The translations under genes were made by a program, and so were the position numbers. DNA of 64,000 bases from an uncultured Clostridia bacterium (lineage in GTDB: Bacteria; Bacillota; Clostridia; Christensenellales; UBA1242), in contig CAMEKS010000001.1 of the NCBI GenBank assembly GCA_945921465.1, positions 2,745-66,744 on the forward strand. Reading direction: 5' to 3'. The notes beneath the pieces are model-generated. The model did no database searches. It had not been told where the DNA came from and worked only from the letters and a program-made list of their open reading frames with translations. This document shows, one piece after another, positions 30,401-62,285 of the stretch (its first letter is position 1; every line of letters begins with the position of its first letter).

Positions 30401-30896
30401 CATCTAGTATGCCACTAAATTCGTTGATAGGTGCCCAGAATCCATTGTTAACATTAGACATATCTAGATTGGCTACCAATTTGTAACAAGCATCAGCAGG
30501 ATATTCATCACTACGACCAATCATAGCCAATTGCTCTGGCTCACTAATGTAATAAGGATTATCTATAGAACCATCGCCAACCAAGACATCGCAGAATAGA
30601 TTACGATATCGGCTATTAGTTGTAGTAAAAGTTACTCTAGCCACACCACCAGCTTTGGCCACAAATAAACCGCTGCTGAAGTCTACTATTGATGTATCGT
30701 TGGTAGAATTAGTTATAGATGTAGTTTTCTTAGGGTTCTTACGTATTACATCAATGCTGAATTCGTCGCCCACATTAACATACATTACCTCTGCGGAAAG
30801 AGAAATAGTCTCTCTGGTAACTACTACAAAAATCATAGATACAGATACTACTATTGCCACAAATACGCTGAAGAATAATACCCAAAACTTTTTCAT
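27459..30896 (-). CDS. Large surface protein: N-terminal signal anchor, Ig-like domain, many GLUG-type repeats and Listeria-Bacteroides (flg_new-like) repeats
   Basis: Repeats of the form xAGIVGxxxxGxIxNCxNxGxI / GGIAAKNIGGKIDN (GLUG-like). The central segments HNLTIIDATTGK...IRFATNQDGTGIPYYNTSKMPNENLTIYVIYS resemble flg_new repeats. Start at Met9 (MKKFWVLFF) behind GGAGGAAA. Confidence 0.75.
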   Translation of the reverse strand: MKKFWVLFFSVFVAIVVSVSMIFVVVTRETISLSAEVMYVNVGDEFSIDVIRKNPKKTTSITNSTNDTSIVDFSSGLFVAKAGGVARVTFTTTNSRYRNLFCDVLVGDGSIDNPYYISEPEQLAMIGRSDEYPADACYKLVANLDMSNVNNGFWAPINEFSGILDGNGFTISNIDIDKDSYLVNNSTDTSIDFSNGGLINTIAANGKVYNLKLANYYAVGEFDNFGTIAAINYGLVERIEIRDAFLNVTADAIGGVVGKNISTNGIDSVNIATISKCSSNVIIGQTESVTDKGVNYEYTGVNGIIGGIAAKNIGGKIDNTYAIGRVYLAGSKITFGGIVGDNQFATLSQGNSTMISAAIVCNSYSAINLYTAKVDASANETIGGVIGQNLDAIEIVTNGKISLESNTNNLSGLYYNKENLNVSESATVKRFAGVGRNMLADKTVSEVTTAEKAGFVQGLTSANMRLQSSFVPGKRVVKTYSTTGNLLATREIAGNWDFGNVWNISTAVNNGFPTLTYTMQDDAEDGITTDFEIVNAYEFVISQGDINEKDAIRKIATIVVKDSNNKVVASTNSASYALGVAEGFRVNITNNSVIIYNLDGKAFYTITFENVSSNYKFNSFEINEEIVANNNVVNGDTSLDIWFRSTRHNLTIIDATTGKTKLTATVTEGESIASYINTITKQYSSYAYIRFATNQDGTGIPYYNTSKMPNENLTIYVIYSNNNNPNYTPDTDVEGDYIISDTDSWNEYVVNYGDNENLTFALANSFTVTSKFLPCENFAGTFNGNGYTIIVKGTLYDFALFDQVADTATINNLTVKYSSPTVRSLNNSNYFGGIANESCGFISDCEVSGTINFSKIAKIGVAGIVGNMQDGQITNCDNSANITAKTQFVAGIVANFEAGTITDCNNIGNINNTSTSVDEYDIIEHGTVISAGIVGLMNGNSRQLVEDCNNRGKITCCVSGSNNGGNAAGIVGYLTIGTVQNNSNSGTISSNYQSAGIVAMMTDGYVKSNINSGNISAITSDTKCNALAGGVVGKVYKSGTITNNTHSTGEIVAKCSKYNATEAYAGGIIGAMFNGGKATNNKLTSICYISATGVFTYAAGGCGRVISGAIFSTATFPANWSSIYSRYVTSTCAQKGYKSPTSNNI

Positions 30897-30990
30897 AAAT
30901 TTTCCTCCATTTCTCAACAAAACTTAATTTATTTTCAAAAACAGCATTATTTCTCTTGACAAAATTTATATTTTTATATAAACTTACCCT

Positions 30991-31416: not shown

Positions 31417-32118
31417 TTAGTCTAATACAAGTTCGTTGCCGTCAATTATTTTGCCGTTGTTTTCTATGGTTACTGTACAAGTTCTGCCTGCAATTTCTTT
31501 AGTCTCTACTGTTTGTTTATGGCTATTGACATTATTAGTCCTAAAATCATAAAATTCGTGAACCGCTCTTTCGATATTAGAGTTGTATTGGTCACGACTG
31601 GCTGATCTAAACTCGTATGTGTCGGCATTTTTAACCAAATTATTTAGGTCTACGCTCTCTTGATTGGTGTAAGTATATGTTTCTATCTCTTTATGATTTT
31701 CTATGCCTATGCCTGTAGAGATTTCTCTAGTAACTTTTTTTACATTTGCAGTAAGCATATCGCCCTTGTATTCATAATCCAAAGTGGTCTGAGAAACAAC
31801 ACCAATAGACATTTCGCTAAATATAACTTGATGGGGTTTTTGCAACCTAAGCATTTCTTCATTGCCATATTCTTTGATGCAATTACGATAATGTCCATCT
31901 TTGAAATTCAATGCCTTGGTTGTTCTAATTACAGTAGGGTTAATTTCGTCATTTCGATTGTAGATTCTTGTTGTCTTAATCCCGTCATTAGTTTTTGTGT
32001 CGATATGAATTGCACTGCCATCGAAATAAGTAATTACTTCCTTGCCATCAACTTTTTTTTGGTTAGGGCGAGTAATTGTGCCATATTTAACTGTTAGTAG
32101 AATATCTTTTATATTCAT
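31417..32118 (-). CDS. Hypothetical cytoplasmic protein (ORFan P1)
   Basis: Start moved to Met25 (MNIKDILLTVKYGT...) behind GGAGGA. No signal peptide and beta-rich composition. Its N-terminal motif is shared with the 32475..33350 protein. Confidence 0.6.
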   Translation of the reverse strand: MNIKDILLTVKYGTITRPNQKKVDGKEVITYFDGSAIHIDTKTNDGIKTTRIYNRNDEINPTVIRTTKALNFKDGHYRNCIKEYGNEEMLRLQKPHQVIFSEMSIGVVSQTTLDYEYKGDMLTANVKKVTREISTGIGIENHKEIETYTYTNQESVDLNNLVKNADTYEFRSASRDQYNSNIERAVHEFYDFRTNNVNSHKQTVETKEIAGRTCTVTIENNGKIIDGNELVLD

Positions 32119-32474
32119 TATTTTTATCCTCCGATATTTACTTTGTAATTTAGGTCTAGACATAATAACACAACTATTTTGCAATTTCAATACCTAACTT
32201 AACAAAATTGATAAATTTTTACCAGATTTTACTTTGACCTGTTGAATTATTAATTATAGAACATTGTTGTCTTAATTTGTGGGATGCTTGAATTGTCTAT
32301 TTGGGCGTAATTTAGTACAACTAGTTTAGTTATGAAGATTATATAATGCATAACTTCTAGTAAAATAATGGAATTTATTATAGAGTCGCAGTAGCGGGAA
32401 AAATTGCTTCCGATTGTGTAATTAAATTTTGTAGTAATTGTGAGGAAGTTAAAAGGTTAGTTATATTATTGAAA

Positions 32475-33350
32475 TTAGTTTAATTCTGGAGAATTGTTAT
32501 CATTTATGTCTGATTGCTTATCGTCGTTAATGATTTGAGTGTCTACTATATATGCTTTGCCACCAACCTCTATATATCTAGGATCTAAAGTGTTGGACAC
32601 CTTAATAGGTCTGAATTTGCTTATGGTAGTGGTTGCTACTTGAGATCGAGAATCATTGTTGGCACTAGCGTAGTTGGTCGTAGTGATCTGGCTAGACATT
32701 TCTTTTGCCATATCCATAGGGTTGCCTATAACACTTTGCATTTTTCTGTTATTATTATAAGAATATTTATCAATAATCTGGCACTTATCTATTCCATATT
32801 CAAGGTCGTACTCGCTTTTTCGAACTAGGGATGACACTTGTGTTGGGTCGTCTCCATTAATATCAAATATTATTGTATCTTCAATCAAATTAGGAATACT
32901 CGACATTTTTTTGGGCTCTAGATTAGGTATAAGATGCATTAAATTAAATGTAGGAACGGGGCCTTCAACTATTTTATCGATTTCGTATTCATTAACCAGC
33001 TGTTGAGGACAATTCTTTATATAAGAATAGAGATTGTTATACAAATAATGTTGGCGCGCGATAGGGGATGTCACATCACTATATTCAATAGTTTTTTCTA
33101 TCTTTAATGGCTCGCCATCTGTATTATCTTGAAAAGTAAGGTTAACCACAGTGCAATGACTATCACTTTTGTCTATAATTGCATATTCGTGTATCAAATT
33201 GTCTTCGAAATATGTCTTAGATTCGGCTGTTCCCATATTGCCTTGCTTTGCTAAATAATTCATTAGTGGGCTATTGATACTCTTTGGATTTTCTTTAGTT
33301 CCGTACTTTATTTCGTTTATTTTTAATTCTATTTTGTCTTTGATTGTCAT
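32475..33350 (-). CDS. Hypothetical cytoplasmic protein (ORFan P2, possible distant paralog of P1)
   Basis: 291-aa ORF beginning MTIKDKIELKINEIKYGT..., compared with P1 MNIKDILLTVKYGT. No signal peptide and no motif I recognise. Confidence 0.6.
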   Translation of the reverse strand: MTIKDKIELKINEIKYGTKENPKSINSPLMNYLAKQGNMGTAESKTYFEDNLIHEYAIIDKSDSHCTVVNLTFQDNTDGEPLKIEKTIEYSDVTSPIARQHYLYNNLYSYIKNCPQQLVNEYEIDKIVEGPVPTFNLMHLIPNLEPKKMSSIPNLIEDTIIFDINGDDPTQVSSLVRKSEYDLEYGIDKCQIIDKYSYNNNRKMQSVIGNPMDMAKEMSSQITTTNYASANNDSRSQVATTTISKFRPIKVSNTLDPRYIEVGGKAYIVDTQIINDDKQSDINDNNSPELN

Positions 33351-34730: not shown

Positions 34731-35041
34731 ATTCATTTCTCCTAATTTTGTTATCGTAGGGCATTACAAACGGCAAACCCTAATTTAATTTGTTGCTTGG
34801 TATGTATAATAGTAAATATTTTCAATATAATTATTCTTGTGCTTATATTATTTCTCAGTAATTTTCAAATTGTCAATACCTCAATAATTTAAGACAACAC
34901 TATGACATTTCCCTTTTGTGCAAAATAGATAATTAACGAAAAACCAATAAATTATTGCAGTCAATAATATGATAATTGAATAAAAGCAATCGGCTTTGGC
35001 AATAATTTTTCCACAATGACTGAAGATGTGTGGAGGAATAT

Positions 35042-36298
35042 ATGAACAAAGTCAACCCTTTTTTTGAAAAAAACGCTATAGGCGTAGACAGGTGGGCTAG
35101 TGTAGACGATTACAGCCCCAAACCTTATGACAAATTAAAAGTATCGCCTTATACCAAAACTAGAGTGATACTGATGAATGGTACAGAATTTGAGCAAAAT
35201 TGGTTCTTGCATCAATTTAGTCGTAATTGTAATAACAACGACCTTAGGCGAGAAATTGCAATGATTAGGCGGCACGAACAACAACAACAAAAGACAATTT
35301 CTGGCTTGAAACCGCTAGACGAAAACAACCTAGAGACAACTATTTCTTACGAGCAACTGGCAATAGATTTGACCGCAATTTTGGCAAGGCACGTCAAAGA
35401 TGATTATGTCAAAAACGCCCTTAATTTCGCCCTATTAGAAGATTTTGACCACTTGTACAGATATGCCAATTTGCTAGAAACCGAACAAGGCACAGATGCC
35501 AATATGTTGACTGGCGGCTATACCGAAATTACACCTGGCAGGCCCACTATTGCCGAGCCAAGACATCCCTTTGACGAAATCAATAGACATATTGCGGATG
35601 AAATTGCAGATCCATTTACCAAATTGGTTGTGGGGATAATTACGGCTGCAGAACAACAAACATTAAATTATTATATGAATATAGCGGGCTTTCACCCAAC
35701 CGAAAATGGTAAACGATTGTATAACGAAATTGCTATGATAGAAGAGCAACACGTTACCGAATATGGTAGCTTAATGGATACAACTTGCAGTTGGTTAGAA
35801 AATTGGCTAATGCACGAATACACTGAGTGCTACCTGTATTATTCGTGCTATGTAGACGAGAGCGATAAAGATATCAAAAATATTTTTTATCAACATTATT
35901 TGCAGGAATGTGGACATCTGCAATATGTTGCAGAACTTTTGCAAAAATATGAGGGTAAGCCTTGGCAAGCATTGTATCCATGTGGGGGAGACTTTCCGGA
36001 ATTGTTGCATTTTGAAGGTAATATAGATTATATCCGAGGGGTGTTAGCAAAGACGGTCAATTACACAAGACACAATGAAGACTATACGACTATAGACAGA
36101 CTGCCAGACAAAGCGAACTATTATAAATATCAAAAGGCGAATATTAAGAAAGTAGAGTCTTTGCCATCTCACAAAGTAATAGTGGACCATATCAAAAAAT
36201 TTGGAAGCGATTATAGATTTGAGACAAAACACAACCCAGTTACTGCTCTACAAGATCGTACTACTGACAACACAAATGTTGGTCGCAAGAAATCTTAA
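35042..36298 (+). CDS. Ferritin-like (di-iron carboxylate type) protein of unknown function
   Basis: Several helix-embedded E/ExxH motifs (RRHEQQQ, LLEDFDH, AAEQQ, IEEQHV, LQECGH). ATG 35042 follows GGAGGA (the track ORF starts at GTG 35030). Confidence 0.6.
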   Translation: MNKVNPFFEKNAIGVDRWASVDDYSPKPYDKLKVSPYTKTRVILMNGTEFEQNWFLHQFSRNCNNNDLRREIAMIRRHEQQQQKTISGLKPLDENNLETTISYEQLAIDLTAILARHVKDDYVKNALNFALLEDFDHLYRYANLLETEQGTDANMLTGGYTEITPGRPTIAEPRHPFDEINRHIADEIADPFTKLVVGIITAAEQQTLNYYMNIAGFHPTENGKRLYNEIAMIEEQHVTEYGSLMDTTCSWLENWLMHEYTECYLYYSCYVDESDKDIKNIFYQHYLQECGHLQYVAELLQKYEGKPWQALYPCGGDFPELLHFEGNIDYIRGVLAKTVNYTRHNEDYTTIDRLPDKANYYKYQKANIKKVESLPSHKVIVDHIKKFGSDYRFETKHNPVTALQDRTTDNTNVGRKKS

Positions 36299-36471
36299 AA
36301 TATTGGGGCAGAGTAACATACACAACCAAAAGTTGGATTATATAGAGACAATGATAATTCAATTAGGACAACGCCGAATATAGAGCAATTGTGATTGCGA
36401 ACTGAGATGCGCGCAATAAAGTGGTCAATAAATATTGAATAAATTGTAATAATTCGAATATACAAAATTAC

Positions 36472-36511
36472 GCACAAAGCCTTAGATTCCTCTTAGGCTT
36501 TGTGTTTTTTA
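36472..36511 (+). terminator. Rho-independent terminator after the ferritin-like gene
   Basis: ACAAAGCC-ttagattcctctta-GGCTTTGT followed by a T-run. Confidence 0.65.
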
Positions 36512-36880
36512 TAGTTCCATTGTAACACAAAAATAAACAATGCAATATTAATCGACAAAATTCGAAAGTTTTGTATGTGTTATTAATATAAAGTTTAAGT
36601 AAAATAATTTTACATAAAATAAATAATATAGTATTATATATAATACATATAGCATTAGGTTAGCGTTAAATTTGTCTTGATTGTAGTCGTGGCCTAATTT
36701 CGTTAGACTATTATGTGTGGGTTAACAATTTTTTAGGAATAAAGTGTTGGATTCGTTATTGATGTAGTACTAATTTGGTGCAACATTATTTCTGTACTAA
36801 TTGTTGATTGAAATCAATTAAATTAAAATATATAACGAAAAAATCTAATAATTATTAAGTAAATAGCGAGGTATAAAGTT

Positions 36881-39800
36881 ATGTCAACTGCTACTATTGT
36901 TAATATTGCTTTGACGGGAGTTGTTGGGCTATTTGTGCTAGTGGGTGCCATTGTAGGTGCCGTTAGAGGTGTTAAGAAAACACTAGTGCGAGGTGTATGG
37001 CTAGGAATATGGACGGTCATATTGGTGTTGTTTCTATCCGGAATAATAACCAACCTAATAATGAATATTAAGTTTACTGCCAATGTTGGTGGCGTAGAAT
37101 GTACCGGAATCAAAGAAATAGTTACAGAACTAATAATGGCTAGTGGGGTAGATATGTCTAGCTTGGGTGAAAATGCGGATGCTGTTATCCAGGTTATTGT
37201 GGGCTATACAGACATAATACTAAATTCGGTTGTGTTTGTACTGTTATTCTGGTTACTAAAGTGGCTGCTGTTACCTATCAATGCATTAATTTATCGTGTA
37301 CTTCCTTGGGGTAAGGCGGAGCGAAAATATAAAAAAGAAAAGAAAGCGTATGATAAGTATGTAAAGGAATATAAGAAATTACACAAGGGCGAAATCCCAG
37401 TCGAGGCAATGGGATTTGCCGACCTTAGCGATGATGAGAAGATACTTGCTGGAAAAATAAGTGAGATTAAGCAGAAGACGGCTTTGGATAGCCTAAGAGA
37501 AGCAAGGGCGTCGATAGAAAATAACGAAAAAATTATTAAGAACGAGAAGTTGGGGCTAGATATCGACAAGTCGGCTGTGGTGCAAGAAAACATCAAGGAA
37601 GAAAATAATAAAACTGAAGAAACCTTTATACCAAAAGAAGAGTATCAGCCAAAACAAGAAGAAGTAGTAGACTTGACTCCGGTAACAAAACCAAAAAAAT
37701 TAAAAAAACATAGACTGCTGGGTATGTTGGTTGGTGGCGTAATGGGAATATTCATTGGTGCTATTACTTTGTCACCTGCCTTGGGCATATTATCTCTAGC
37801 AAATGACATCAACTCTAATAACGAGATAGAATTAGAGGACGGGACCAAGAAGGGCTTGGTGGATTATCTGACTCAAGATATGTTCAGCCAAATCAATGAA
37901 TATTATGAAGATTCTATAGGCTCTAAGGCCCTTACATATACCGGCGGAGAGTGGGTGGCTACGGCCACTTTTGGGGCATTGACTCGTGGAAAAGTAGATG
38001 GACAAGTTGCAGATCTTGCCGAGGATGCTAAGAATATAGTAGCGATAGCGTCATTGGTTAATACGATAACCGACCAAGTCAAGGAATTAGAAGAGAGCAA
38101 TTATCAGCCCGATGTTTTACGAAAAATAATTAAAAATATAGACAAGATTATAGATTATGCATTTAATATTAGCGTAGTCAACGTGTTAGCACCATATACT
38201 ATGCAGATTCTGGCCGACGAGATAGAAAAAACAGCGAACGACAACACGACTGCTTTGGCAGAAAATGAGAATTCTACTGAGGCAAATGACGATATTAATA
38301 AAATATTGGTCAAGTTCGCCCAAACTGTAGCGACATTTGAAGACGCAAGTACAATTAAGAGCGAATTAAAATCTTTTATTAAGATAGTAGAGATGCTTAA
38401 TTATGGTGTAAATATCAATACAATCGATGGCGTTAGATCAACATCATTGCTGTCCGAAATATTGAAGTCTAGCGACAATTCCAAGAATTCAGAAGTGACC
38501 AGAACTATTCAAAAATTGAATTACGAATATTATACAACCAACCAAAAGATGTACTTTACCTCATTAATAGAGAAGTGTTATAGCGTAGATGGTTACGAGA
38601 CTAAGGCTGTGCCAGAGGTTATGCCAATGGGCATAGAAGTGGTGCTTAAGGCTTTGCTGCAAGAAGCAGGAGTGACCAATGCGGGTGAAATATTAGCAGG
38701 CGATTCTAAAGAAACTGTAAAAAATTTCTTGATGTCAACATTTAACGAAGTATTTGCGGTTCTGCTAGAACTTAATACTGGCTACGATGCTAATAACAAT
38801 ATGGTGTATATAGAGTATGAGACCGAAGACGACTGGGGCAACATTACATTGGGCAAGATTAGCAAAAATATGTTTACATCTTTGGGTAAAATACTTGACA
38901 ACATCGCTGGATTGGTTAATGAAGAAGTGTACAAAGATGCTATTGCATCAGTTGCAAAGAACCTTAATAATATAGCAACCGAAGGGCTGAAAGAAATGAT
39001 GGGCGAAGATCCTGCGTCTAAGGTCGGCGCTAATCTTGAATCAGCGCTTAATGCTTTGACCGGCGAAGGTGCGTTCGCCAAAGAATTGACTGCAGTTGGC
39101 GAAGTATATCAAACAATCTTTAACAACAATGGACTATTTAAGGGCGAATTTGCACTCAACGACAAAGACAATTGGCAATGGCAAATTAATAATCTTTCGG
39201 CACTTGGCAACGCATTAGATGCTTTACAAGAGACAACTCTTTTGGGATATGTCAATACAGGAGACAAATACAACACCATTAATATTATATTCACCGCAAT
39301 GCTAGATAAGGTTAAAACTGATATGGTTGACACAAATAGTTTATCGCTAGATTTGAACGGATACATTGAGTCTCCTTCAGTTATGGAGCATGCTGTATAT
39401 AATATTATCAATCTAATAAATTATAACATTTCTAATCAATGTATCAACGGCAAAGTTGATTGGAGTAACACATTTGATAAGTGCGCCAAGGCTATAGGTG
39501 TGATTACTGACATAATTAATGCCGAAAAAACAGACGATGTTGACTCTATAGATATGGTGTTAGAAATCTTAGGCAAGCATACCTCTATCGAGCTGGATGG
39601 AAATGCCAATGAAGTAATCAAGGGTGCCTTAGATGAGATTAATATTACTAGTAACACAATCTTCACTGGATTGGTTAGTCGCGTGTTGACCGACTTCAGA
39701 TCGGTGTTAAATTCGCAAATCTCAGCAGCAGATAATAAGCAGGTAAATACAATTATTAATGCATTGTTTGATACATTGTCAGGGGTTGGCACTAGTACAA

Positions 39801-41881
39801 AACCAAGGAACACTTATCAGTATCACCTTAATACACTAAAAGAAGTTTATGATTATATTACTAACGAAGAATACGGACTTGGTGGATTAGATAACATCGA
39901 ATTCGATACCAAAGATTTGGGTAAGTTGGGAGAATTGTTAAATATTATAACCAAAAGCAATTCTAACGAAACCGATGCAATTCCGCTAGTAAGCAATAGC
40001 ACTATTTGTGAAATTATTGCAGACATTATGCAAGAACAATTAATTGATGGAAGCAACGGAATAGAGTCTATGATATCCGACTCAGATATTAGCGGTGCTA
40101 TGAAAGATTTTGTAACAACATTAATTGCTAATATACGCAATAGCGTTCCATTCAGATACACCCCAACCAACGGATGGGTAGGCGTAACAGAGGCATTGAG
40201 TTATATTATTAACAATTGTCTAGATGGCGGTAATATAGATTTTGCTGATACAGATGCCACATCTACCATAATTGGCAAAATGATGGATGTGCTATCTGGC
40301 AAGGACTTTGTGATAGGAACTGGGGCAGATGCCAAGACTTATAACGCTAAGTTTGTAGAGCCAAAAGATGTCAAACTGCTGTTGGGTAAAATTATTGCTA
40401 AGAAGATGTCTAATATGTCAATTGATGCAAAAATCAAAGATGCTATAATGGGAGCAACATTTAGCTTAGCCAGTGATACAACATACAATATCTATGCCAA
40501 GGCAATTAATCTATATGTTTATGGCGAAGCTGAGACAACTAAGGACATATTTAACGACAATAAGGTGTCACTTGTCAATGTCGAAGGCCAGACATATACT
40601 CTTAACGGAATATGTGATAAAATATTCAATTTTAACAACAACGCCTATAGTTGGGAAGTTGCGTTAAAGACGCTGCTTAATTTAACCAATACAAACTTTG
40701 CAAGTGCAGGTTTGGGCAACTTTAGTAATATTAATCACACTTATTATAGTGCAGATACTGTCGAAATCAGCGGATTTGGAGAAACATTAGATAATATATT
40801 AATCAATCAATGGGAAATGGCAGAGAGTGTCAACATTATCACTTTGGATCAAATCAAATATATAATGAGTTCGACGATTGCAAATGAATTAGAAGATGTA
40901 ACTGACACTGATGTTAGGGGTGCTCTTGATACAATCGTTAACAACATCAACAAAATTACAGAATCAGAAGTTAAGGCTACACTTAAGACGGTCGCCAATG
41001 ATTGGACCGGTGCGTATTTCGATACTCAGACTAAGGCAATGCAATATGCAATAGATATCCTTAATGGCTACACTAGCGCAACCGACCAAGACGCATATAT
41101 TGCAGACTTGGGAGTATATCTAGACGAAATAGATAAGGTTGTTTTAACTAATGGGTTAGGCAAGACATTTACTATCACCATTCTTAATAAAATAGGCAAT
41201 GACGAAGATTCTGATAGTATTGCAACTACCATTAACACAGCAGTGGCCAAGTTGCGAGGCGAAGAAAGTGTTACAAAAGTATTCTTGCAAAACAATAATG
41301 ACAGAGTTAACAATTTGTATAATGGCAAAAATAACGAAGAAGTATACGCTTTGTTAAGCGAATTGAAGAGCACATTAAATGGAATTACATTCAGTAATTT
41401 TGAATTAACGTTGGGTGGAGAAACTACCATCTCTTCTGATAAATACAATGAAATGCGTAACAATTTGGTGAACATTTCTATAACTATTCAGCAGTTGCAA
41501 AGCAACCCAATAGTTGGTGCAAAAGATGCTAGATATATAGCAATTGCAGTAATAAATAAGTTGGTTACTAGTATGGACAATTTGATTACTTCAGTTAACT
41601 ATTCTAATAATGTCAATAGAGCATATGGGCACAAAACTGGAACAACAGCAGATGGATATAAGCAATATTTGATTGATAGAATAGCGGTGACTGATGAGGA
41701 AGAAGAATATGCGACACTAGTCGCAGGCTCTACTACTGATTATGAAGTGCCATATTATGTTGATAATAATGGTGATTCTAATGTAGAAACTGCAGAATAT
41801 GCTTATCTATATCAAACTCAAAAGTATATAATAGTCTACTTATTAGATGATTATTATAATTTAATAACAAAATCAAATTAA
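36881..41881 (+). CDS. Giant (1666 aa) membrane protein: CvpA-like N-terminal TM region, K/E-rich coiled segment, another TM helix, then about 1350 aa of helical sequence of unknown function
   Basis: N-terminal helices (IVNIALTGVVGLFVLVGAIVGAV..., WLGIWTVILVLFLSGII..., VVFVLLFWLLKWLLLP), a charged segment at residues 150-270, and a TM helix LLGMLVGGVMGIFIGAITL. The rest has no motif I recognise. Confidence 0.7.
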   Translation: MSTATIVNIALTGVVGLFVLVGAIVGAVRGVKKTLVRGVWLGIWTVILVLFLSGIITNLIMNIKFTANVGGVECTGIKEIVTELIMASGVDMSSLGENADAVIQVIVGYTDIILNSVVFVLLFWLLKWLLLPINALIYRVLPWGKAERKYKKEKKAYDKYVKEYKKLHKGEIPVEAMGFADLSDDEKILAGKISEIKQKTALDSLREARASIENNEKIIKNEKLGLDIDKSAVVQENIKEENNKTEETFIPKEEYQPKQEEVVDLTPVTKPKKLKKHRLLGMLVGGVMGIFIGAITLSPALGILSLANDINSNNEIELEDGTKKGLVDYLTQDMFSQINEYYEDSIGSKALTYTGGEWVATATFGALTRGKVDGQVADLAEDAKNIVAIASLVNTITDQVKELEESNYQPDVLRKIIKNIDKIIDYAFNISVVNVLAPYTMQILADEIEKTANDNTTALAENENSTEANDDINKILVKFAQTVATFEDASTIKSELKSFIKIVEMLNYGVNINTIDGVRSTSLLSEILKSSDNSKNSEVTRTIQKLNYEYYTTNQKMYFTSLIEKCYSVDGYETKAVPEVMPMGIEVVLKALLQEAGVTNAGEILAGDSKETVKNFLMSTFNEVFAVLLELNTGYDANNNMVYIEYETEDDWGNITLGKISKNMFTSLGKILDNIAGLVNEEVYKDAIASVAKNLNNIATEGLKEMMGEDPASKVGANLESALNALTGEGAFAKELTAVGEVYQTIFNNNGLFKGEFALNDKDNWQWQINNLSALGNALDALQETTLLGYVNTGDKYNTINIIFTAMLDKVKTDMVDTNSLSLDLNGYIESPSVMEHAVYNIINLINYNISNQCINGKVDWSNTFDKCAKAIGVITDIINAEKTDDVDSIDMVLEILGKHTSIELDGNANEVIKGALDEINITSNTIFTGLVSRVLTDFRSVLNSQISAADNKQVNTIINALFDTLSGVGTSTKPRNTYQYHLNTLKEVYDYITNEEYGLGGLDNIEFDTKDLGKLGELLNIITKSNSNETDAIPLVSNSTICEIIADIMQEQLIDGSNGIESMISDSDISGAMKDFVTTLIANIRNSVPFRYTPTNGWVGVTEALSYIINNCLDGGNIDFADTDATSTIIGKMMDVLSGKDFVIGTGADAKTYNAKFVEPKDVKLLLGKIIAKKMSNMSIDAKIKDAIMGATFSLASDTTYNIYAKAINLYVYGEAETTKDIFNDNKVSLVNVEGQTYTLNGICDKIFNFNNNAYSWEVALKTLLNLTNTNFASAGLGNFSNINHTYYSADTVEISGFGETLDNILINQWEMAESVNIITLDQIKYIMSSTIANELEDVTDTDVRGALDTIVNNINKITESEVKATLKTVANDWTGAYFDTQTKAMQYAIDILNGYTSATDQDAYIADLGVYLDEIDKVVLTNGLGKTFTITILNKIGNDEDSDSIATTINTAVAKLRGEESVTKVFLQNNNDRVNNLYNGKNNEEVYALLSELKSTLNGITFSNFELTLGGETTISSDKYNEMRNNLVNISITIQQLQSNPIVGAKDARYIAIAVINKLVTSMDNLITSVNYSNNVNRAYGHKTGTTADGYKQYLIDRIAVTDEEEEYATLVAGSTTDYEVPYYVDNNGDSNVETAEYAYLYQTQKYIIVYLLDDYYNLITKSN

Positions 41882-47153: not shown

Positions 47154-47573
47154 ATTATTTTGACCTAATGTAAAATTTTATATTTTTTTTAGCAAGTTAT
47201 ATTGTGACGGCCTTGCAATCAATATACTATACCAATATTAGACACACTGGTCAGTATGTACCACTATAGATTAAATGATATATATATACAAATATATATT
47301 ATCATAACATAGGTATCAAAGTCCACAATTTTTGTTGTTATTTTGATGGCTTAACAGATAAACGAATTTTAGATAGTTCAACGGACGATTATTTATTTTT
47401 CAGGCGAAGATAGTCGACTTGAATACAAGGTGGTAAGAATTAGACTACAGTTCAATTATGTATTTAAGGGCAATAAGCGCAAGTGTAATATTGTCGAGCA
47501 TTGCCAAAATTGTTTGCCAACGGGTAAGGAAATATGAGATAATATAATGTGTCTTTTGGGGACAAATGTGATT

Positions 47574-47818
47574 TGATATTGAATTAACATCAGCTTTGCT
47601 TGAATATACTCTCGCTTTGCTTCGTGTGCATTCATACAAAACTTCCGATAATATAATCTATGTGATGTTGCTTTGCTCACTTTGTTCGCAAATCAATTTG
47701 CTAAATGCAAATCCGTTGTCACAACGGCATCCTGATTGAATTAACATCGGTTATATACAAGAGAACCTATCGGGTATGTTTGTTTATAACTTCCGATATT
47801 ATAATTATTCGGAATGTA
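47574..47818 (+). repeat. Structured modular repeat, locus A (variant X module, then L, then X); flank 47440-47573 may hold degenerate remnants
   Basis: Hand alignment to loci B, C and D. Shares TTTGCTCACTTTGTTCGCAA, GGCATCCTGATTGAATTAACATC, ..GTTTGT.T.TAACTTCCGATATTATAAT. The strand given is the one favoured by G-U pairs. Confidence 0.8.
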
Positions 47819-47892
47819 TGAAACATATTGTAGAACAATGAAATTACAAAAGCCAAAGGCACAATGTGCAACAAAGGAAATTGAAGAAAATT

Positions 47893-50076: not shown

Positions 50077-50236
50077 CCAAAAAACTATTTTATTAATATC
50101 GTAAGATATTTATAATCGCACCTGCAAAGAAGATTGTATATAGCTGATGTTAATTAATTTTTGGATATTATTGTCCTGCTGCAGATTTTTGATAAATTGC
50201 AATAGAATTAGAAATAGAATATTTGAATAATATACA

Positions 50237-50345: not shown

Positions 50346-50828
50346 TTATTGAGTCTTTTTGTTAAGATATGCCATTAGTTTAGCAGTGGCATCGCTGCTA
50401 GTATGGGTAGATTCTTCTTTGTTAACTAGCCTTTCAATTTCCCACATACATTTTACAAATCTATTTAATTTGTAAGTCGTAGTCTCGGTGTCTGCATCGA
50501 GCGTAATTATGCCATCTGCAAATTGGCACTTGTATTTATTACAGGCGTCTGCGACAATGTCATCAATTCTAACTACGTTGGCAAATTTTTCTACCACTGC
50601 GCCAAGGTCTGTAATGGTGTATTCGTCGGATGTGCTTAATAGTCCCATATTTTCTTGCTCTTCGCTACGCTCTAGCACTACTTCGGTTTCATTTTCTATC
50701 TTAATTGCGATAGTTATAGCGGTGCCGTCTTCGTAGTAAGCGGGATATGCCAACATATATAGCCCATTGCCATAATTAAGCTTATATATGCTTTGATTAA
50801 TTTTTTCTAAAATATCATTTATTTTCAT
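50346..50828 (-). CDS. Hypothetical protein, possibly DUF1828-like
   Basis: 160-aa ORF. N-terminal pattern ...YPAYYEDGTAITIAIKIE...EYTITDLGAVVEKF recalls DUF1828 proteins as I remember them. Weak call. Confidence 0.5.
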   Translation of the reverse strand: MKINDILEKINQSIYKLNYGNGLYMLAYPAYYEDGTAITIAIKIENETEVVLERSEEQENMGLLSTSDEYTITDLGAVVEKFANVVRIDDIVADACNKYKCQFADGIITLDADTETTTYKLNRFVKCMWEIERLVNKEESTHTSSDATAKLMAYLNKKTQ

Positions 50829-51237
50829 AATTACCCCATTATGTTTTAATTTTATGATAACAATTTATAATAACAAATCTACGAGATGTTAACTTGCTTA
50901 TGCGTCTGCCTGTATCTCAATCTGACAATTGCAATTTTGATATAGTAGCGGCACACTGAGTTAATAACCTAGAGATATATACAAGTAATGCTACGCATAT
51001 ATCTATTTATAGTTACCAAAAAATATTAATTTAATATCATATTAATATTATAAACAGACAATCAAAATATTATCTGTTTCCTCAGTTGCTCACATTTTGC
51101 ATAGCGACAATCATCAAATCATAATATTACTTATGATTGCAAGTATACAGTTACAATTATATTCTATCACAATATTTGCAGTAATATATAGCAGTAATTC
51201 ACTATTTTTAATTTTTTCAATTTGATAAATCAAGGTC

Positions 51238-52365
51238 TTAGTTGCGTTCCATTTCTTCTTTGGAATGGAAGAATGTCGCTATCTGCGGAGCGGTAAACGA
51301 AGCGCTTGATTTTTTTAATTCAGCATTGCTATTGATTCGGTCAATTTGCTCGTGACATCTACCTTCGAATGAACCCATTTTGCCAGAATATTTTAGTAGT
51401 GGAATAACAGTTTCGGAGATTGGATTGAAGCTATCTGCACTGCTAAATACGGGCTCGCTACTAGGTATATTTGCAGCGTTGCGAACAGCAAGTAGTGTCT
51501 GGCCAAAAGTCAACTCTACATCTCTACCTACACTCATTGCATCTGTGTGGTTATATGAATAAGGTTTGAACGCTACTCCCATAGCGTTAGGTAAATGAAT
51601 ATGAGAACCATATACATCTACGCCGTGTTTTAATACTTGACTATTGCTTTTGTCTAAGAAATTCTTGTGTGGTGCTACTGGGTTATAATCACATCGATAT
51701 AATTCTACAGGGATTAATGTGTCTTCGCCAACATCATTGTGACCATTAATAAATGCCTTAAGTGTGGTTGATGCACCAGTAACTGGGTAGTCAACAGTGC
51801 TGCCTGTTATACGGAACTGGCTGCCTGCAATAGGAATAGCGATGGTTTCCTTAAATAATACTAAGTTGCCTTCGACATTACCGGCGAACCAATTGGTATA
51901 ACAATCTAGATATGTATCTGTTTTGCGTACCGTATCGCCATATAGATCGGCTTTTGGAACAGAGTGGAAATATGTAGTTGGGCACAACTTTATTTTGTCG
52001 CACGCCAACATTTTCTCATACTGTAGTTGAGTAAAAGGCATAGGATATACTTGTTTGTCTTCTTTTACATACTTTAGAGTTTGCGGGATGGAATGCATAG
52101 ACATATCGTTACTCAATCCATAACCTTTGGATATTTTTAATCCTAACTTACCGCTTACAAAACTGCTTATTTCATCCAAACATTTTTGTACATGAGTCAA
52201 GCACCAATCTACATATTCTTGCGATCGATTTTGTTTATAATAATTAGTCTTGTTGTTGTCGTTAATTAGGCTTTGGCGAAAAGCGGTTGTGCAAAGTTCA
52301 TTCCATTCTTTTTCGCTTAAATTTTTTTTGGTTAGTGTGGTTATGTCTATTTCTTTTTTAGTCAT
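51238..52365 (-). CDS. Hypothetical protein (375-aa ORFan) downstream of repeat locus B
   Basis: Clean ORF with RBS GAGGG. No motif I recognise, and no RuvC/HNH/RT/recombinase signatures. Confidence 0.6.
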   Translation of the reverse strand: MTKKEIDITTLTKKNLSEKEWNELCTTAFRQSLINDNNKTNYYKQNRSQEYVDWCLTHVQKCLDEISSFVSGKLGLKISKGYGLSNDMSMHSIPQTLKYVKEDKQVYPMPFTQLQYEKMLACDKIKLCPTTYFHSVPKADLYGDTVRKTDTYLDCYTNWFAGNVEGNLVLFKETIAIPIAGSQFRITGSTVDYPVTGASTTLKAFINGHNDVGEDTLIPVELYRCDYNPVAPHKNFLDKSNSQVLKHGVDVYGSHIHLPNAMGVAFKPYSYNHTDAMSVGRDVELTFGQTLLAVRNAANIPSSEPVFSSADSFNPISETVIPLLKYSGKMGSFEGRCHEQIDRINSNAELKKSSASFTAPQIATFFHSKEEMERN

Positions 52366-52547
52366 TCTCGCCCTCGCTTATATATTAGGATTTTATCATA
52401 TTCGCTTACTAATTGCAAGTAGTTATTTTATAATTGAGACGTCAAAAAGACTACTAGTATAATCAATTTTCAATGATTTGTTCGTTATAATAATTCGAAA
52501 TATAAATAAGACTTTTTGAGTTAATACAAATATAAATGCATTATTAA

Positions 52548-52924
52548 CGGTAGTGCATATTGGGCGATAGCCCCATATTGTATAGATAATAAGTATATAT
52601 CATCCAATGCAGCTAGTCGTAGATTGTGCTCGAGGAAATATTATCCAAAGTAGTCGCAAGACACCTTGAGATAATATGACGAAGGAAACAATCTATGTGT
52701 CAGACGACGCTAGTCGGCTGGGATGCACGGTAGTGCATATTGGGCGATAGCCCAATTACACATAGATTATAATATCGGAAGTTAGAGACAAACGTACCCG
52801 ATAGGGTCGCTTGTATATAACTGATGTTAATTCAATCAGGATGCCGCTAGTATTAGCGGTAGGTTGCGATTAGCGAACTGAGTTGCGAACAAAGTGAGCA
52901 AATCTACATCTCATAGATTATAAT
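52548..52924 (-). repeat. Structured modular repeat, locus B (L-X-Y-Z-truncated Y, read on the minus strand)
   Basis: The reverse complement aligns base-for-base with locus D over about 330 nt (L, X, Y, Z and the first half of the second Y). See findings. Confidence 0.9.
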
Positions 52925-54991: not shown

Positions 54992-55207
54992 TTATCCACA
55001 ATTTCACAAGTTTTGTTTATTAATTTTTTTGAATTATTATGCAAAAATTAAAAATTTGAAAAATTTTTGTGAAAAAATGTCGAAAATCACCAAAGTTATC
55101 CACTTATCCACCACTTATCCCCGAGTTATCCACAGCCAATGTTCGTAAAATGTTTTATAACGACGTGTTTTTATGTCACAAAGATGTGTTTTGAATAGTT
55201 ATCCACA
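54992..55207 (+). promoter_or_regulatory. DnaA-box cluster with AT-rich spacer (candidate oriC segment or DnaA-titrating cluster)
   Basis: TTATCCACA at 54992-55000, 55126-55134 and 55199-55207. TTATCCACT 55096-55104, TTATCCACC 55104-55112 and TTATCCCCG 55115-55123. All are on the same strand. 55001-55095 is AT-rich with reiterated GAAAAAT-type motifs. Confidence 0.75.
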
Positions 55208-55223
55208 TAGTTGTACACAAGTT

Positions 55224-56699
55224 TTATGGACATACATATGTTGGGATTGTGTCAAATAAGAAATCCGTACCCATATTTAGTGTGGCAGTTTCGTCATCTA
55301 TTATTGGAATATCTGGGATATTGTCTTCTACGCCTTCGATCACAATACCCGCTTGTGGCTGATATATTTCGTGTCGTATTTCTTTGCGGTCTATTACCTC
55401 ACCATTGCGAGAGGTAATAAGATATGATTTGACATCAAATCCTCCTCTAGGGTAGGTTAATCTATAAGTCTCGCCCTTAAACAAAACCTTGTCTGTATAT
55501 TCCTTATTCACGTCTGGAACTATTCGATCAGGCAGTGGTGATAAGGTGGCTAATGTTTCGCTCTCTGTGCTGTATTCTACGTCTAGTGGGTAAGAGTATA
55601 TCTCTACAGTAACGTCATCTGCAGTGCTGCTGGTTTTGATAAATATTGGGTGCTCAGATGTGTTAGTAAATTTTAGGTCTGAAGCGCCGGATACCATTGC
55701 ATCTAGGGCTAGAGGTACATATCTAACTGGGAGCGTGTGCTTATGAACTTCGTCTATTTGTATGCCAGATAGCAGTAGTGCATTGTATAGGGTGGTGCTG
55801 GCTTGGCACACACCTCCGCCAATTCCGTCAACAAACCTGCCATTTTGTATAATTGTAGCGATTTGATATCCATTATCTAGTGTATGTGGCGAGGTGACTT
55901 CGTTAAAAGAAACTGACTGGTTTGGTTCTATTCTCATTCCGTTAAATTTGGATAGTGCTAATTTTACATTGTTTTTTCTTCCACCAGTACTGTCACCGAC
56001 CGATGTGGAGAATTTGGCGATTCTATTGGTTAATGATTGATTGTATTCTTCACTAATTTTAGGTTCGGCATCTTCTAGCTCTAGTTCAATCAATATGTTA
56101 TTAGTTATAGCAAATTGCTTATTGATATTGCTATACAATTTGTCCCTATTTATTACTTTTCCACTAGCAGAAGGCGTAATCTGCCACATATTTGCCTCTG
56201 TCGGTGAAAATGTAATGGTAGAATCTATGGCAGGTGTCTCTATGGACTGACATATTTCTTCTATCTTTTGGTCTAGACCTTGAAAAATATAGTTAAATGC
56301 AATAGTTGTGGAACCGTCGGAAGTTGAGATTAATCCCATAGACTCTAACTTAGAAGCATAGTCGCTGTTAGAATCAGATAATTCTAATATAGATCTAACA
56401 TCAGGATTGATAGTGTAATCATCTTGGTCTATGATAAATATTTGGTCGCCTTTTTTTAGCGTCAGACTGAAGTTGTTGGCTTTGTCTGCAATGTATGACG
56501 ATACTTTTTCATATGCTTCGGCGCTAGTAATTCCTTTTAGATTAATTCCATTAATTTGGGTGTTGAATTCGCTTGAGTACGTATTGCGAAAAACATTGAG
56601 TTTGCATAGTAATATTATTAATACAACTGCTATAGCAATTATTAGTGTAGTTATAATCATCCAAAATGTTCGTGATTTTTTGCTCTTTGATGTAGACAT
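55224..56699 (-). CDS. VanW-family protein with N-terminal TM anchor
   Basis: TM helix FWMIITTLIIAIAVVLIILL and the VanW core GIGGGVCQASTTLYNALLLSG. Confidence 0.8.
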   Translation of the reverse strand: MSTSKSKKSRTFWMIITTLIIAIAVVLIILLCKLNVFRNTYSSEFNTQINGINLKGITSAEAYEKVSSYIADKANNFSLTLKKGDQIFIIDQDDYTINPDVRSILELSDSNSDYASKLESMGLISTSDGSTTIAFNYIFQGLDQKIEEICQSIETPAIDSTITFSPTEANMWQITPSASGKVINRDKLYSNINKQFAITNNILIELELEDAEPKISEEYNQSLTNRIAKFSTSVGDSTGGRKNNVKLALSKFNGMRIEPNQSVSFNEVTSPHTLDNGYQIATIIQNGRFVDGIGGGVCQASTTLYNALLLSGIQIDEVHKHTLPVRYVPLALDAMVSGASDLKFTNTSEHPIFIKTSSTADDVTVEIYSYPLDVEYSTESETLATLSPLPDRIVPDVNKEYTDKVLFKGETYRLTYPRGGFDVKSYLITSRNGEVIDRKEIRHEIYQPQAGIVIEGVEDNIPDIPIIDDETATLNMGTDFLFDTIPTYVCP

Positions 56700-57089
56700 A
56701 TTGTTAATACCTCGATGTACTTATCTTTTGTTATTATTGTGTATTTTTTTATACAAATTATGCAAAGGATGCGAGTAATAATAGTGTAATAGTTATATTA
56801 CATATTTTATATAAAATTGTTTTTACAGTAGTTATTAGTCCATTATATGACAATTGTAGATTTTGGGTGGTTTATAATATTTAGATTAATTTAGCAAAAC
56901 ACAACAAAAGCAATATATAGAATAGGTGTCAATATTTAGGATGTATATCTATATGCAAAAGAGTAGTATTACTGATACGATCTATAAACTTTTAATTCCT
57001 TTCTGATATAAAATAAGATTAAGAATCCTAGTTATAATTGTAGCAACATAATACTAGACTATATAAGTTATCAAGAGAATAAATGTACT

Positions 57090-57323
57090 TTATTTATTAT
57101 TGCCTTGCTTCTCAATCATAGACTTAAGCACTTCACGCTTAGCGTCTTCTTTTATTAACCTTATTATCCCTACGAATAGCGAAATGTAGTCCTGCTCGGT
57201 TATGGCGGGTGCAGATGGAAAAGTAAGAATAGATTTGTTTATGGGGCGGAATCTATATATAATATTATTACCTGTATTTGGTGAATTATGATTTCTAAGT
57301 TTGTTGGTTTTGAATAATTTCAT
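57090..57323 (-). CDS. Small hypothetical protein (77 aa)
   Basis: Isolated ORF in a 1.2-kb AT-rich intergenic stretch. Weak RBS and no motif. Coding status uncertain. Confidence 0.3.
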   Translation of the reverse strand: MKLFKTNKLRNHNSPNTGNNIIYRFRPINKSILTFPSAPAITEQDYISLFVGIIRLIKEDAKREVLKSMIEKQGNNK

Positions 57324-59005: not shown

Positions 59006-59155
59006 GTATAATATCTGAAGTTAGAGACAAACATACCCTAAGGGATCGCTTATATATAACTGATGTTAATTCAATTGGGATGCCGCAATCATTTGCTGAG
59101 GGTTGTGACAGAGACCACAGAGGCGAGCGAAAACGTAAGAAAATCTACATTGCAT
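59006..59155 (-). repeat. Structured modular repeat, locus C (L-X only, read on the minus strand)
   Basis: The plus strand reads ...CTGAAGTTAGAGACAAACATACCCTAAGGGATCGCTTATATATAACTGATGTTAATTCAATTGGGATGCCGC..., homologous to the X and L modules of locus B. The L part is the most diverged copy. Confidence 0.8.
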
Positions 59156-59214
59156 AAATTAAATTATAGATTTAATTGATAATAACTATAGATTTTTAAC
59201 TACAAGGGGAAGAA

Positions 59215-60607: not shown

Positions 60608-60792
60608 AGATAATATTGCAAAAGGCTATATTAACAATAGAAAAAGATCTCAGCAATTCGTAATAAAAATAGTATTAGACACGAACAAAAGTCAAAAAGT
60701 TAATAAAAATTGGCAATTATTATGAATTTGTTGACATTAAGTGGGGATTTGTTGGTATTTATAACATAGATGTGTTAGCATTTGAACAAAAA

Positions 60793-60828
60793 AACCAAGG
60801 CGATTATTAGGTTGCCTTGTTTTTTTTG
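60793..60828 (+). terminator. Rho-independent terminator candidate after the metallopeptidase pair
   Basis: CAAGGC-12 nt loop-GCCTTG followed by T8. Confidence 0.6.
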
Positions 60829-60887
60829 ATGCAATTATATGTATTATAATATTTGATCGAATACAATAACTTATGAAAAGTTGAGTT

Positions 60888-61338
60888 GGTTTGCCTTAGT
60901 CTGCAATTCAATTTGCTATCGCAAACACCGCCATTACTAGCGGCATCCTGATTGAATTAAAATCAGTTATATACAAGCGATCCATACTGGATACGTTTGT
61001 CTCTAAATTCCGATATTATAATCTATGTGTAATTGGGCTATCGCCCAATATGTACAGCCGTGCATCCCAGCCGACTAGCGTCGTCTGACACGTAGATTGT
61101 TTCCTTCGTCATATTATCTCAAGGTGTCTAGCGACTACTTTGGATAATATTCCTCGGGCACAATCTATTACTGGCTGCAGTGAATAGAATATATTTTTTA
61201 TCTTCACAATAGGGGGCTATCGCCCAATATGCACTATCGTGCATCCCAGCCGACTGGCGTCGTCTGACACATAGATTGAATTAACATCAGTTATATACAA
61301 GCGACCCATATTGGGTACGTTTGTCTCTAACTTCCGAT
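60888..61338 (+). repeat. Structured modular repeat, locus D (longest copy: L-X-Y-Z-Y-X)
   Basis: Contains two X modules (60948-61019, 61278-61338) and two Y modules (61020-61098, 61211-61277) as direct repeats around a unique Z segment (61099-61210). Confidence 0.9.
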
Positions 61339-61424
61339 AATATGTCATATTGCGATTAATGTTTTTGAAAAAGTAAGGGGGAATAGATTAAAAGTTATCC
61401 TAGTTATAATTGTTCTAGACTTTT

Positions 61425-62285
61425 TCAGTGTATTTTCTGGTCTTTGTTATTTGAAAAGCAGTACTCTGTTATCACATTAGATAGTGTAACTAATTGTGCA
61501 GCCGATAACGCTTCGCCACGTATTCCTTGAGGGAGTCCGCTTATAGATAGGATATTAGTGGTTGTGTCAGAGTCAAATCCGAAAGACGATTTTAGATTAT
61601 TAGCCAATGTCTTGCGACGCATTGCAAATGCAGCCCTGATAGTACGACGAAGAATTGATTGATCTACAACATCATATTTGTTAGGCACTATATCTATCCT
61701 AACGATTGCACTATCTACATTTGGTGCAGGGGTGAACATATGCCTACTAATGCGTTTCACAATTCTGGCATTGCCCATGGTTGCGATAGCGGCGGTTATT
61801 GCTCCATAGTTAGCAGTATTTTCTTTTGCGACCAGCCGCTCTGCAACTTCTAATTGTACCATAATGGTTAATGATTGTAGTTTAGTAGCATTGTCTAGGA
61901 ACTTAAAAATTATTGGCGTGGTTATGTAATAAGGAAGGTTTGCAATCATAGAATAGTTGCCATTGAAGTTAGCTTCGATGTCAGCCATCGTTTGTAGCAT
62001 AATATCTCCAAAAACTAATTTGACATTGGGTTTGGATGCAAACTTGTTGGTTAGGTACGGCTGCAGATTAGTATCTATCTCATAACTAACTACGTACTTA
62101 GCAGTATCGGATATTACATCAGTCAGTGTGCCTGCACCAGTGCCAATTTCTAGAACCTGCGATTGATTATCTATTCCCGCACATGCTACTATAGATCGTA
62201 GTAAATTTGTGTCAAAAATAAAATTTTGACCAAATTTCTTATTAAAATTGAAATTATATGCTTTTAATTCGTCTAGTATAGCCAT
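61425..62285 (-). CDS. rsmA: 16S rRNA (adenine1518/1519-N6)-dimethyltransferase
   Basis: KKFGQNFIFD, the SAM motif VLEIGTGAGTLT and NLPYYITTPI are typical of KsgA/RsmA. Confidence 0.92.
   Translation of the reverse strand: MAILDELKAYNFNFNKKFGQNFIFDTNLLRSIVACAGIDNQSQVLEIGTGAGTLTDVISDTAKYVVSYEIDTNLQPYLTNKFASKPNVKLVFGDIMLQTMADIEANFNGNYSMIANLPYYITTPIIFKFLDNATKLQSLTIMVQLEVAERLVAKENTANYGAITAAIATMGNARIVKRISRHMFTPAPNVDSAIVRIDIVPNKYDVVDQSILRRTIRAAFAMRRKTLANNLKSSFGFDSDTTTNILSISGLPQGIRGEALSAAQLVTLSNVITEYCFSNNKDQKIH

Follow-up and report, generated by a model that had tools for sequence, protein, structure and literature searches.

BOX elements take the form boxA-boxB(n)-boxC in Streptococcus pneumoniae, and seven module types are known in Streptococcus suis. 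For BIMEs, stabilization of mRNA 3' ends and a role in termination have been proposed, and REP sequences are single palindromes of 20 to 40 nt that often alternate in orientation and are linked to RAYT. The large ornate RNAs, i.e., OLE, GOLLD, HEARO, ROOL, and raiA, are defined by cross-species conservation and by covariation over the whole molecule. BOX-type elements have been described as composite and modular, with a length of 67 to 637 bp and predicted RNA stem-loops, and MITEs as small, non-coding, multi-copy, AT-rich elements with terminal inverted repeats, target-site duplication, and a cognate transposase (PMC3049150). Correia/NIME elements of Neisseria and other MITEs can in addition carry promoter-like hexamers and RNase target hairpins (PMC3049150).

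The current study deals with an intergenic locus, here termed locus D, in a 64-kb stretch of DNA (the window) whose genes point to a spore-forming member of the class Clostridia (Firmicutes) with a low GC content (35.5%). An initial annotation had placed the locus in the size range of the large ornate RNAs, and its length of 400 to 500 nt, lack of coding capacity, multiple hairpins, and unknown function are indeed reminiscent of these molecules. Unlike them, locus D has no Rfam match and no homolog outside one lineage, and it represents a chain of independently occurring repeat modules; the reading as one large ornate RNA was given up, since the modules also occur separately or in other combinations at six other sites. 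What stands is a non-coding, structured, and modular element in which one-strand selection on the hairpins would fit an RNA; a single large RNA does not stand. With moderate confidence, we regard locus D as the longest composite copy within a family of mosaic intergenic repeats that are rich in hairpins and confined to one lineage, here represented by an uncultured Clostridia bacterium. In our best reading, this family would be a new one of BOX/BIME-like mosaic intergenic repeats.

The likeness to BOX elements lies in the architecture. Both are found in Firmicutes, are composed of fixed terminal and variable internal modules (a feature also found here), measure tens to several hundred nt, sit between genes in either orientation, contain independent predicted stem-loops if transcribed, and are restricted to a lineage (for BOX, see PMC3049150). 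In contrast to BOX elements, which have been reported with terminal inverted repeats and target-site duplications and in more than 100 dispersed copies per genome, inverted repeats are not general here, and the seven visible loci are mostly clustered. The REP/BIME sequences of enterobacteria likewise combine GC-rich palindromic units with further short motifs into intergenic mosaics, often between convergent genes or after terminators, but the modules described here measure 70 to 115 nt, have a direct orientation within the unit, and are not accompanied by a RAYT gene in the window. To our knowledge, the four-way-junction module Y has no counterpart among BOX elements. A sequence relationship to boxA, boxB, or boxC would not be expected between lineages this far apart. 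The elements share with Correia and other MITEs that they are small, non-coding, structured, and multi-copy, whereas those of the Correia type are characterized by terminal inverted repeats of 26 bp and by duplication of TA. Among the MITE features, the family is small, non-coding, and multi-copy; general terminal inverted repeats and AT richness relative to the genome were not found in it. The classical MITE class is disfavored by the lack of general inverted repeats, a GC content above that of intergenic DNA, and the absence of a transposase in the window.

A new modular repeat family is hence documented for an almost unsampled lineage of gut Clostridia, including an unusually compact predicted four-way-junction module and hairpins that appear to be maintained on one strand. 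Repeats of this type can give rise to promoters, stabilize or cleave transcripts, and drive rearrangements, and those described here are located at several synteny breakpoints relative to related genomes. The reassignment of a candidate large ornate RNA to a mosaic repeat is relevant for noncoding RNA pipelines that flag long structured intergenic regions.

Modular architecture of locus D

The locus was correctly recognized, but its limits had to be shifted: the stretch that is homologous to the other copies extends from about 60862, i.e., about 25 nt before the initially annotated start, to 61343, not 61338. Its non-coding status was confirmed, with a longest ORF of 43 aa. The internal direct repeats in the order L-X-Y-Z-Y-X are present as described, and the X pair and the Y pair are each 91% identical. 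Matches to the X core (five) and the Y core (four) in the window compare with a chance expectation of 0.00 to 0.03.

Module L (60862-60949, plus strand), which was delimited by aligning it with its counterparts in loci A, B, C, and E (nhmmer E=1.6e-19), starts with a TAnAAT hexamer (TACAAT, 60862-60867) and contains a terminal hairpin followed by GGCATCCT. The first copy of module X (X1; 60950-61019, plus strand), defined by repeat alignment, a covariance model (CM) score of 99 bits, and covariation, bears a conserved 11-bp bulged hairpin, ACAAGCGAUCC...GGAUACGUUUGU. Its 91% identity with the second copy (X2; 61274-61343, plus strand; CM score of 95 bits), which forms the 3' end of the element, extends across 70 nt.

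X1 is followed by the junction motif TATAAT-CTATGTGT (61017-61030, plus strand), which also opens L in loci A and B and constitutes the 5' arm of the closing stem of Y. The first copy of module Y (Y1; 61018-61098, plus strand) is a predicted four-way junction. Its stretch from 61035 to 61099 is 91% identical across 65 nt with the second copy (Y2; 61214-61278, plus strand), which was identified by repeat alignment and profile match. That Y2 lacks the 5' arm of the closing stem, as noted before, is borne out by module comparison and folding. Between the two lies module Z (61099-61213, plus strand; nhmmer E=1.7e-42), which is shared with locus B only and comprises a long hairpin, ATATTATC...GATAATAT, closed by ATAGATTGT/ACAATCTAT, and then a second hairpin, which is AT-rich. 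The complementary heptamers AATCTAT in Z (61162-61168) and ATAGATT (61271-61277) exist, but the helix enclosing Z and Y2 that had been deduced from them is impossible in the sister copy B, because B is truncated inside Y2.

Surroundings and assembly of locus D

Locus D follows a terminator and lies between convergent genes. The terminator scan recovered the upstream hairpin at 60796-60819, followed by T8, and this intrinsic terminator of a Zn-peptidase gene pair (60796-60827, plus strand; 10-bp stem and T8) is located outside the repeat. Downstream, the convergent rsmA gene was confirmed on the minus strand (61425-62285). A TATAAT hexamer between terminator and element is also present, but at 60845-60850, one base off the annotated position, and outside the repeat. 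Neither the sequence nor the terminator scan revealed a convincing -35 box or 3' terminator at the locus, and the proposal that D is its own transcription unit was not sustained.

The convergent rsmA/Zn-peptidase spacer (window 60608-61424) looks like an insertion hot spot. In relatives, the same spacer contains a terminator alone (L005 and L006) or three unrelated genes (L007 and L008), and the cassette in the latter two (L007:10972-14376 and L008:7422-10826) encodes a LysR regulator, a CYTH-HAD protein, and a methyltransferase.

Internal repeats and the origin from a metagenome-type assembly could point to a mis-joined or expanded repeat, an explanation that is hardly credible for locus D. 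The separately deposited assembly GCA_019973165.1 carries an identical locus (506/506 nt), yet it shows 4 differences in 5537 nt compared with the window outside D; the internal repeat copies differ mutually at about 9% of positions; and locus B independently has the order L-X-Y-Z-Y. Since the second assembly agrees and the internal repeats have diverged, the architecture of D is not an assembly artifact, and the local duplication by assembly against which the initial annotation had cautioned was not upheld in the comparison with GCA_019973165.1. The sole difference between the two assemblies inside locus B falls in a loop, not in a stem.

Further copies in the window

The modules of D recur at six further sites, in both orientations and in varied combinations, i.e., as L-X at loci A, C, E, and G and as L-X-Y-Z-Y' at locus B, compared with L-X-Y-Z-Y-X at D. 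The module sizes are about 85 nt (L), 75 nt (X), 80 nt (Y), and 115 nt (Z), and the seven loci of the family measure 65 to 480 nt and have no ORF longer than 43 aa. L-X is the minimal unit; longer copies retain L as their 5' and X as their 3' module and carry Y and Z in between. The module joints are short common motifs, namely, ATTATAAT-CTATG(T/A)G, which opens L and Y and is found again within Z, and CATAGATTG, which closes Y and leads into X or Z.

Locus A (47537-47803, plus strand) consists of a degenerate unit (A0) and an intact L-X upstream of tex. The sister copy B (52547-52924, minus strand) is 89 to 97% identical to D, lies between glnS and a gene encoding a 375-aa protein, and has a second Y that is cut off within its second hairpin. 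Both A and B are located upstream of a gene (tex and the 375-aa gene, respectively) in the same sense. Locus C (59007-59168, minus strand) is an L-X unit antisense to both flanking genes.

Copies E and G were added by profile and covariance-model searches, and the covariance model recovers the same copy set. Locus E (50862-51025, plus strand) is an old, divergent L-X (E=6e-12 and 6e-18; CM score of 65 bits) that has only about 65% identity with the reference copy over the X core; it is flanked by a DUF1828 gene and the 375-aa gene and runs antisense to each of them. Locus G (36296-36450, minus strand), an old and eroded L-X with weak colinear matches of the L, X, and Z models, lies between the stop codon and the terminator of one and the same gene and is antisense to both neighbors. 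The relic F (50094-50158, minus strand) is an eroded X fragment (profile E=0.0065; CM E=0.0017). A strongly folding window beside G (36459-36578) turned out to be an ordinary intrinsic terminator.

The identity among copies ranges from about 60% to 97%, which implies old and recent waves of spread. A total of about 73 kb of this genome shows only seven loci, six of which are crowded into 14 kb, and this clustering does not resemble the scattered distribution of classic mobile repeats. The GC content of the elements is 33 to 41% (Y, 48 to 55%), compared with 26% in other intergenic DNA and 35.5% in the window. Every L module, even that of the old copies E and G, opens with the TAnAAT hexamer; because this hexamer also ends X, it may be a junction or target motif.

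The gene order in this part of the window differs from that of relatives. The leuS gene, which relatives carry between the 70-aa and VanW-like genes, is absent here (window 55224-57323 versus L005:13674-18221), and VanW is followed by glnS here and by NfeD/Band_7 genes in relatives. The repeat-bearing 14-kb region therefore coincides with synteny breaks.

Predicted folding and strand bias of the hairpins

The predicted fold of locus D has a free energy of -159.1 kcal/mol (z = -8.6 versus shuffles; reverse strand, z = -7.8). When intergenic windows were ranked by structure, loci B and D accounted for about half of the top 30, and most of the others are terminators. Module Y is predicted to form a 13-bp closing stem around three tetraloop hairpins that leave hardly any base of the junction unpaired, resulting in a four-way junction with about -38 kcal/mol for Y1 and about -40 kcal/mol over 87 nt. 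The minimum-free-energy fold of each module is the same alone and within the composite, and L has no conserved fold past its last hairpin. The individual hairpins comprise 16 to 28 nt and have, as judged by eye only, no consistent GTAG/CGTC tag at the stem foot. A C-UAnC-G tetraloop is common to five hairpins, and the loops differ freely among close copies (UACC, UACA, UAUC, and AGCC).

Comparison of the copies points to conservation of pairing. For the hairpin on the 3' side of X, the seven copies gave 89% paired cells, a value that was reached by 0/500 shuffles, and slid controls gave just 21 to 46%. Six pairs of this hairpin are changed on both sides across the seven copies (reached by 1/500 shuffles), e.g., in the tip stem, which reads ACCC/GGGU in B and D2, AUCC/GGAU in D1, and, in two different compensated forms, AUGC/GCAU in E and CCAA/UUGG in G.

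The folding energies of whole modules gave a mixed picture when the strands were compared, and a pair-level count of G.U versus A.C was used instead, based on a strand-neutral reference structure that was predicted from copy B and contains Watson-Crick pairs only. On the forward strand of the element, substitutions in the stems of X, Y, and Z resulted in nine G.U and one A.C, a bias that comprises about 10 events and for which a binomial estimate gives a p value of roughly 0.02. The X hairpin is predicted to be 2 to 4 kcal/mol more stable on the forward strand in 5/5 intact copies, and one of its G.U pairs is invariant among the six compared copies. Because copies are found on both chromosomal strands, the bias is not a replication-strand mutation bias. 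Pairing in the predicted stems is thus preserved on one strand through compensatory and G.U-type substitutions, and this strand-specific upkeep would imply use in a single-stranded form. The hairpin compensation in the old copies E and G hints at a host-level function and not just at a selfish repeat.

Relatives and database searches

When 5.8 billion protein clusters were compared, the next-best RsmA shared 67% identity, and species-representative genomes contain RsmA proteins with at most 58 to 61% identity. To judge from these proteins, the source lineage belongs to almost unsampled gut Clostridia.

At least four of the copy-bearing spacers have short, empty counterparts in relatives whose gene order is conserved. 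The rsmA/Zn-peptidase spacer, which comprises 817 nt with D here, has 70 nt and a bidirectional terminator only in L005/L006; the spacer between a 317-aa gene and the peptidase has 92 nt in L005 and 379 nt with C here; the one between glnS and a 357-aa gene has 135 nt in L022 and 602 nt with B here; and that between the 357-aa gene and a 162-aa gene has 44 nt in L022 and 409 nt with E here. Neither the module profiles nor the covariance models matched the loci of the relatives, and an analogous repeat family of the relatives' own was not found in these loci. Syntenic conservation of D, proposed for a search by the initial annotation, was thus looked for and not encountered: the element is absent from the same spacer in the nearest relatives. 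The empty sites of the relatives and the lack of homologs in the collections are indicative of a lineage-specific insertion family and not of a conserved syntenic RNA gene.

In the relatives, a nearly identical bidirectional terminator hairpin, AAAAGTGGCTAAAYTTAGCCACTTTTT, is found at L005:1743-1782 and 4937-4976 and at L007:1746-1808, 4123-4185, and 4938-4977. It is reused at two or three sites within 3 kb per relative and represents a small repeated-terminator family that is unrelated to the mosaic repeat.

Rfam 15 contained no family matching any repeat locus, either at the gathering threshold or at E <= 5. An exact-pattern scan of species-representative (GTDB) genomes, JGI metagenomes, and viral contigs (IMG/VR) gave 0 matches for the X core. 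The Y core had nine metagenome matches and one viral match that were confined to the 18- to 22-nt seed and had unrelated flanks, and these matches are at chance level. The metagenome contigs L012 (1337-1358) and L015 (643-664) have 22 nt (AATTGGGCTATCGCCCAATATG) in common with hairpin 1 of Y and also carry CTGACAC and CTAGCGAC nearby; this match was judged to be due to chance because order and flanks differ. BLAST of locus D against phage and plasmid collections returned no match, and neither did a search of its six-frame stop-free peptides, which was aimed at ORFs mis-called on other copies, against 15 billion proteins.

Element ends, proposed mechanism, and alternative explanations

Terminal inverted repeats, assessed by comparing the 5' end with the reverse-complemented 3' end against a shuffle control, were not significant except at locus A. 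The ends of the other loci have only the 8-bp palindrome ATTATAAT in common, and A is the sole copy with a significant 26-nt flanking inverted repeat, which is centered on this palindrome. At window 47790-47825, past the X terminus of A, the end of the degenerate unit A0 recurs in inverted form and reads TTCATACA..TTCCGA..ATAAT. The ATTATA-like sequence at both element ends could be the element's own or a duplication, and the empty sites in the relatives are too diverged for a base-by-base alignment, so that target-site duplications are unreadable there. Neither a transposase nor a recombinase gene was found in the 64-kb window or in 9.5 kb of extra flanks.

A mosaic repeat family of this kind would have spread as a non-autonomous copy-and-paste or recombinational repeat, like BOX or BIMEs, and its modules may have been shuffled by recombination at the junction motifs. 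The active form would be single-stranded, most simply a forward-strand RNA originating from the element's own TAnAAT box or from read-through. Such an RNA would represent a chain of independent, stable hairpins with local action instead of one integrated large RNA, and its possible local roles include protection of 3' ends, a processing site, and insulation of the convergent peptidase and rsmA transcripts.

Some of these observations could also be accommodated by multi-copy structured sRNA genes, in which L would be the promoter and L-X RNAs of about 150 nt, or an RNA of about 480 nt in the case of D, would act in trans, e.g., as a multi-hairpin protein-binding RNA. We consider this possible but unlikely. 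The retention of TAnAAT as the opening of every L, E and G included, the hairpin covariation and the forward-strand G.U bias, a GC content above that of intergenic DNA, and the five hairpins with C-UAnC-G tetraloops are consistent with such genes, and loci C, E, and G, which run antisense to the genes on either side, would need an internal promoter for any transcription. However, no -35 box or extended -10 was found, the distance between the -10 and L varies (6 to 13 nt), X is not followed by an intrinsic terminator, and the same hexamer ends X. The free variation of the loops, an L without conserved fold, the absence of the element from all relatives, and the presence of truncated and eroded copies likewise speak against sRNA genes. 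The corresponding assignment to a new structured-RNA class, comprising TAnAAT-driven L-X sRNA genes of about 150 nt and, at D, an RNA of about 480 nt with two Y domains, is equally doubtful; forward-strand pairing would then be under selection, and the family would have grown by gene duplication, not by transposition.

Strand-specific hairpin conservation that tolerates G.T pairs would also be expected if the elements were mobilized as single-stranded DNA (IS200/IS605-type or REP/RAYT-type) by an HUH (Y1) transposase encoded elsewhere in the genome. Classical terminal inverted repeats were not found, GC-rich palindromes lie within AT-rich spacers, and several insertions adjoin terminators or hairpins, all in line with this mechanism. 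It is nevertheless improbable, because the window contains no Y1 or RAYT gene, the units of 150 to 480 nt with four module types far exceed REPs in size and complexity, hairpin feet lack a conserved GTAG/CGTC tag (by eye only), and no conserved tetra- or pentanucleotide target precedes the copies at their 5' side. A cis-regulatory leader or riboswitch-like element for adjacent genes is suggested by loci A and B, which have the same orientation as the downstream tex and 375-aa genes, but is very improbable for the family as a whole: C, E, and G are antisense to their neighbors, D lies past a terminator between convergent genes, the neighboring genes are functionally unrelated and occur in relatives without the element, and no Rfam cis-regulatory family matched.

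Additional observations in the window

A role of locus B as an IsrB/IscB-omegaRNA-like guide or scaffold RNA, or as a transposon end, for the 375-aa gene was considered and dropped, because the gene encodes a rare unannotated protein with a homolog near glnS in a repeat-free relative. The 375-aa protein had no match in Pfam, NCBIfam, PHROG, or PADLOC and only seven remote homologs among 1.84 billion representatives. Its gene (51238-52365, minus strand) pairs with that of a protein of about 160 aa with a weak DUF1828 match (50346-50828, minus strand); the pair is conserved (L022:6001-7607 and L021:649-2415), is located beside glnS in at least one relative, and looks like a rare uncharacterized two-gene module.

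In the glnS/VanW spacer (window 55048-55134, plus strand), a weak Rfam match to the c-di-GMP-I-UAU riboswitch (20.7 bits versus a gathering score of 65.9; E = 1.7) is most likely due to chance. Large ORFs without a Pfam match at E <= 1e-5 encode proteins of 1153, 1666, 422, 257, and 291 aa, and the sites of such ORFs include 27459-30920 (minus strand), 36881-41881 (plus strand), 35030-36298 (plus strand), and 31417-33350 (minus strand). A 127-nt direct repeat with 73% identity (15934-16060 and 18499-18625, 2565 nt apart) lies within a 1543-aa transglutaminase-like ORF and probably reflects an internal duplication of a protein domain.
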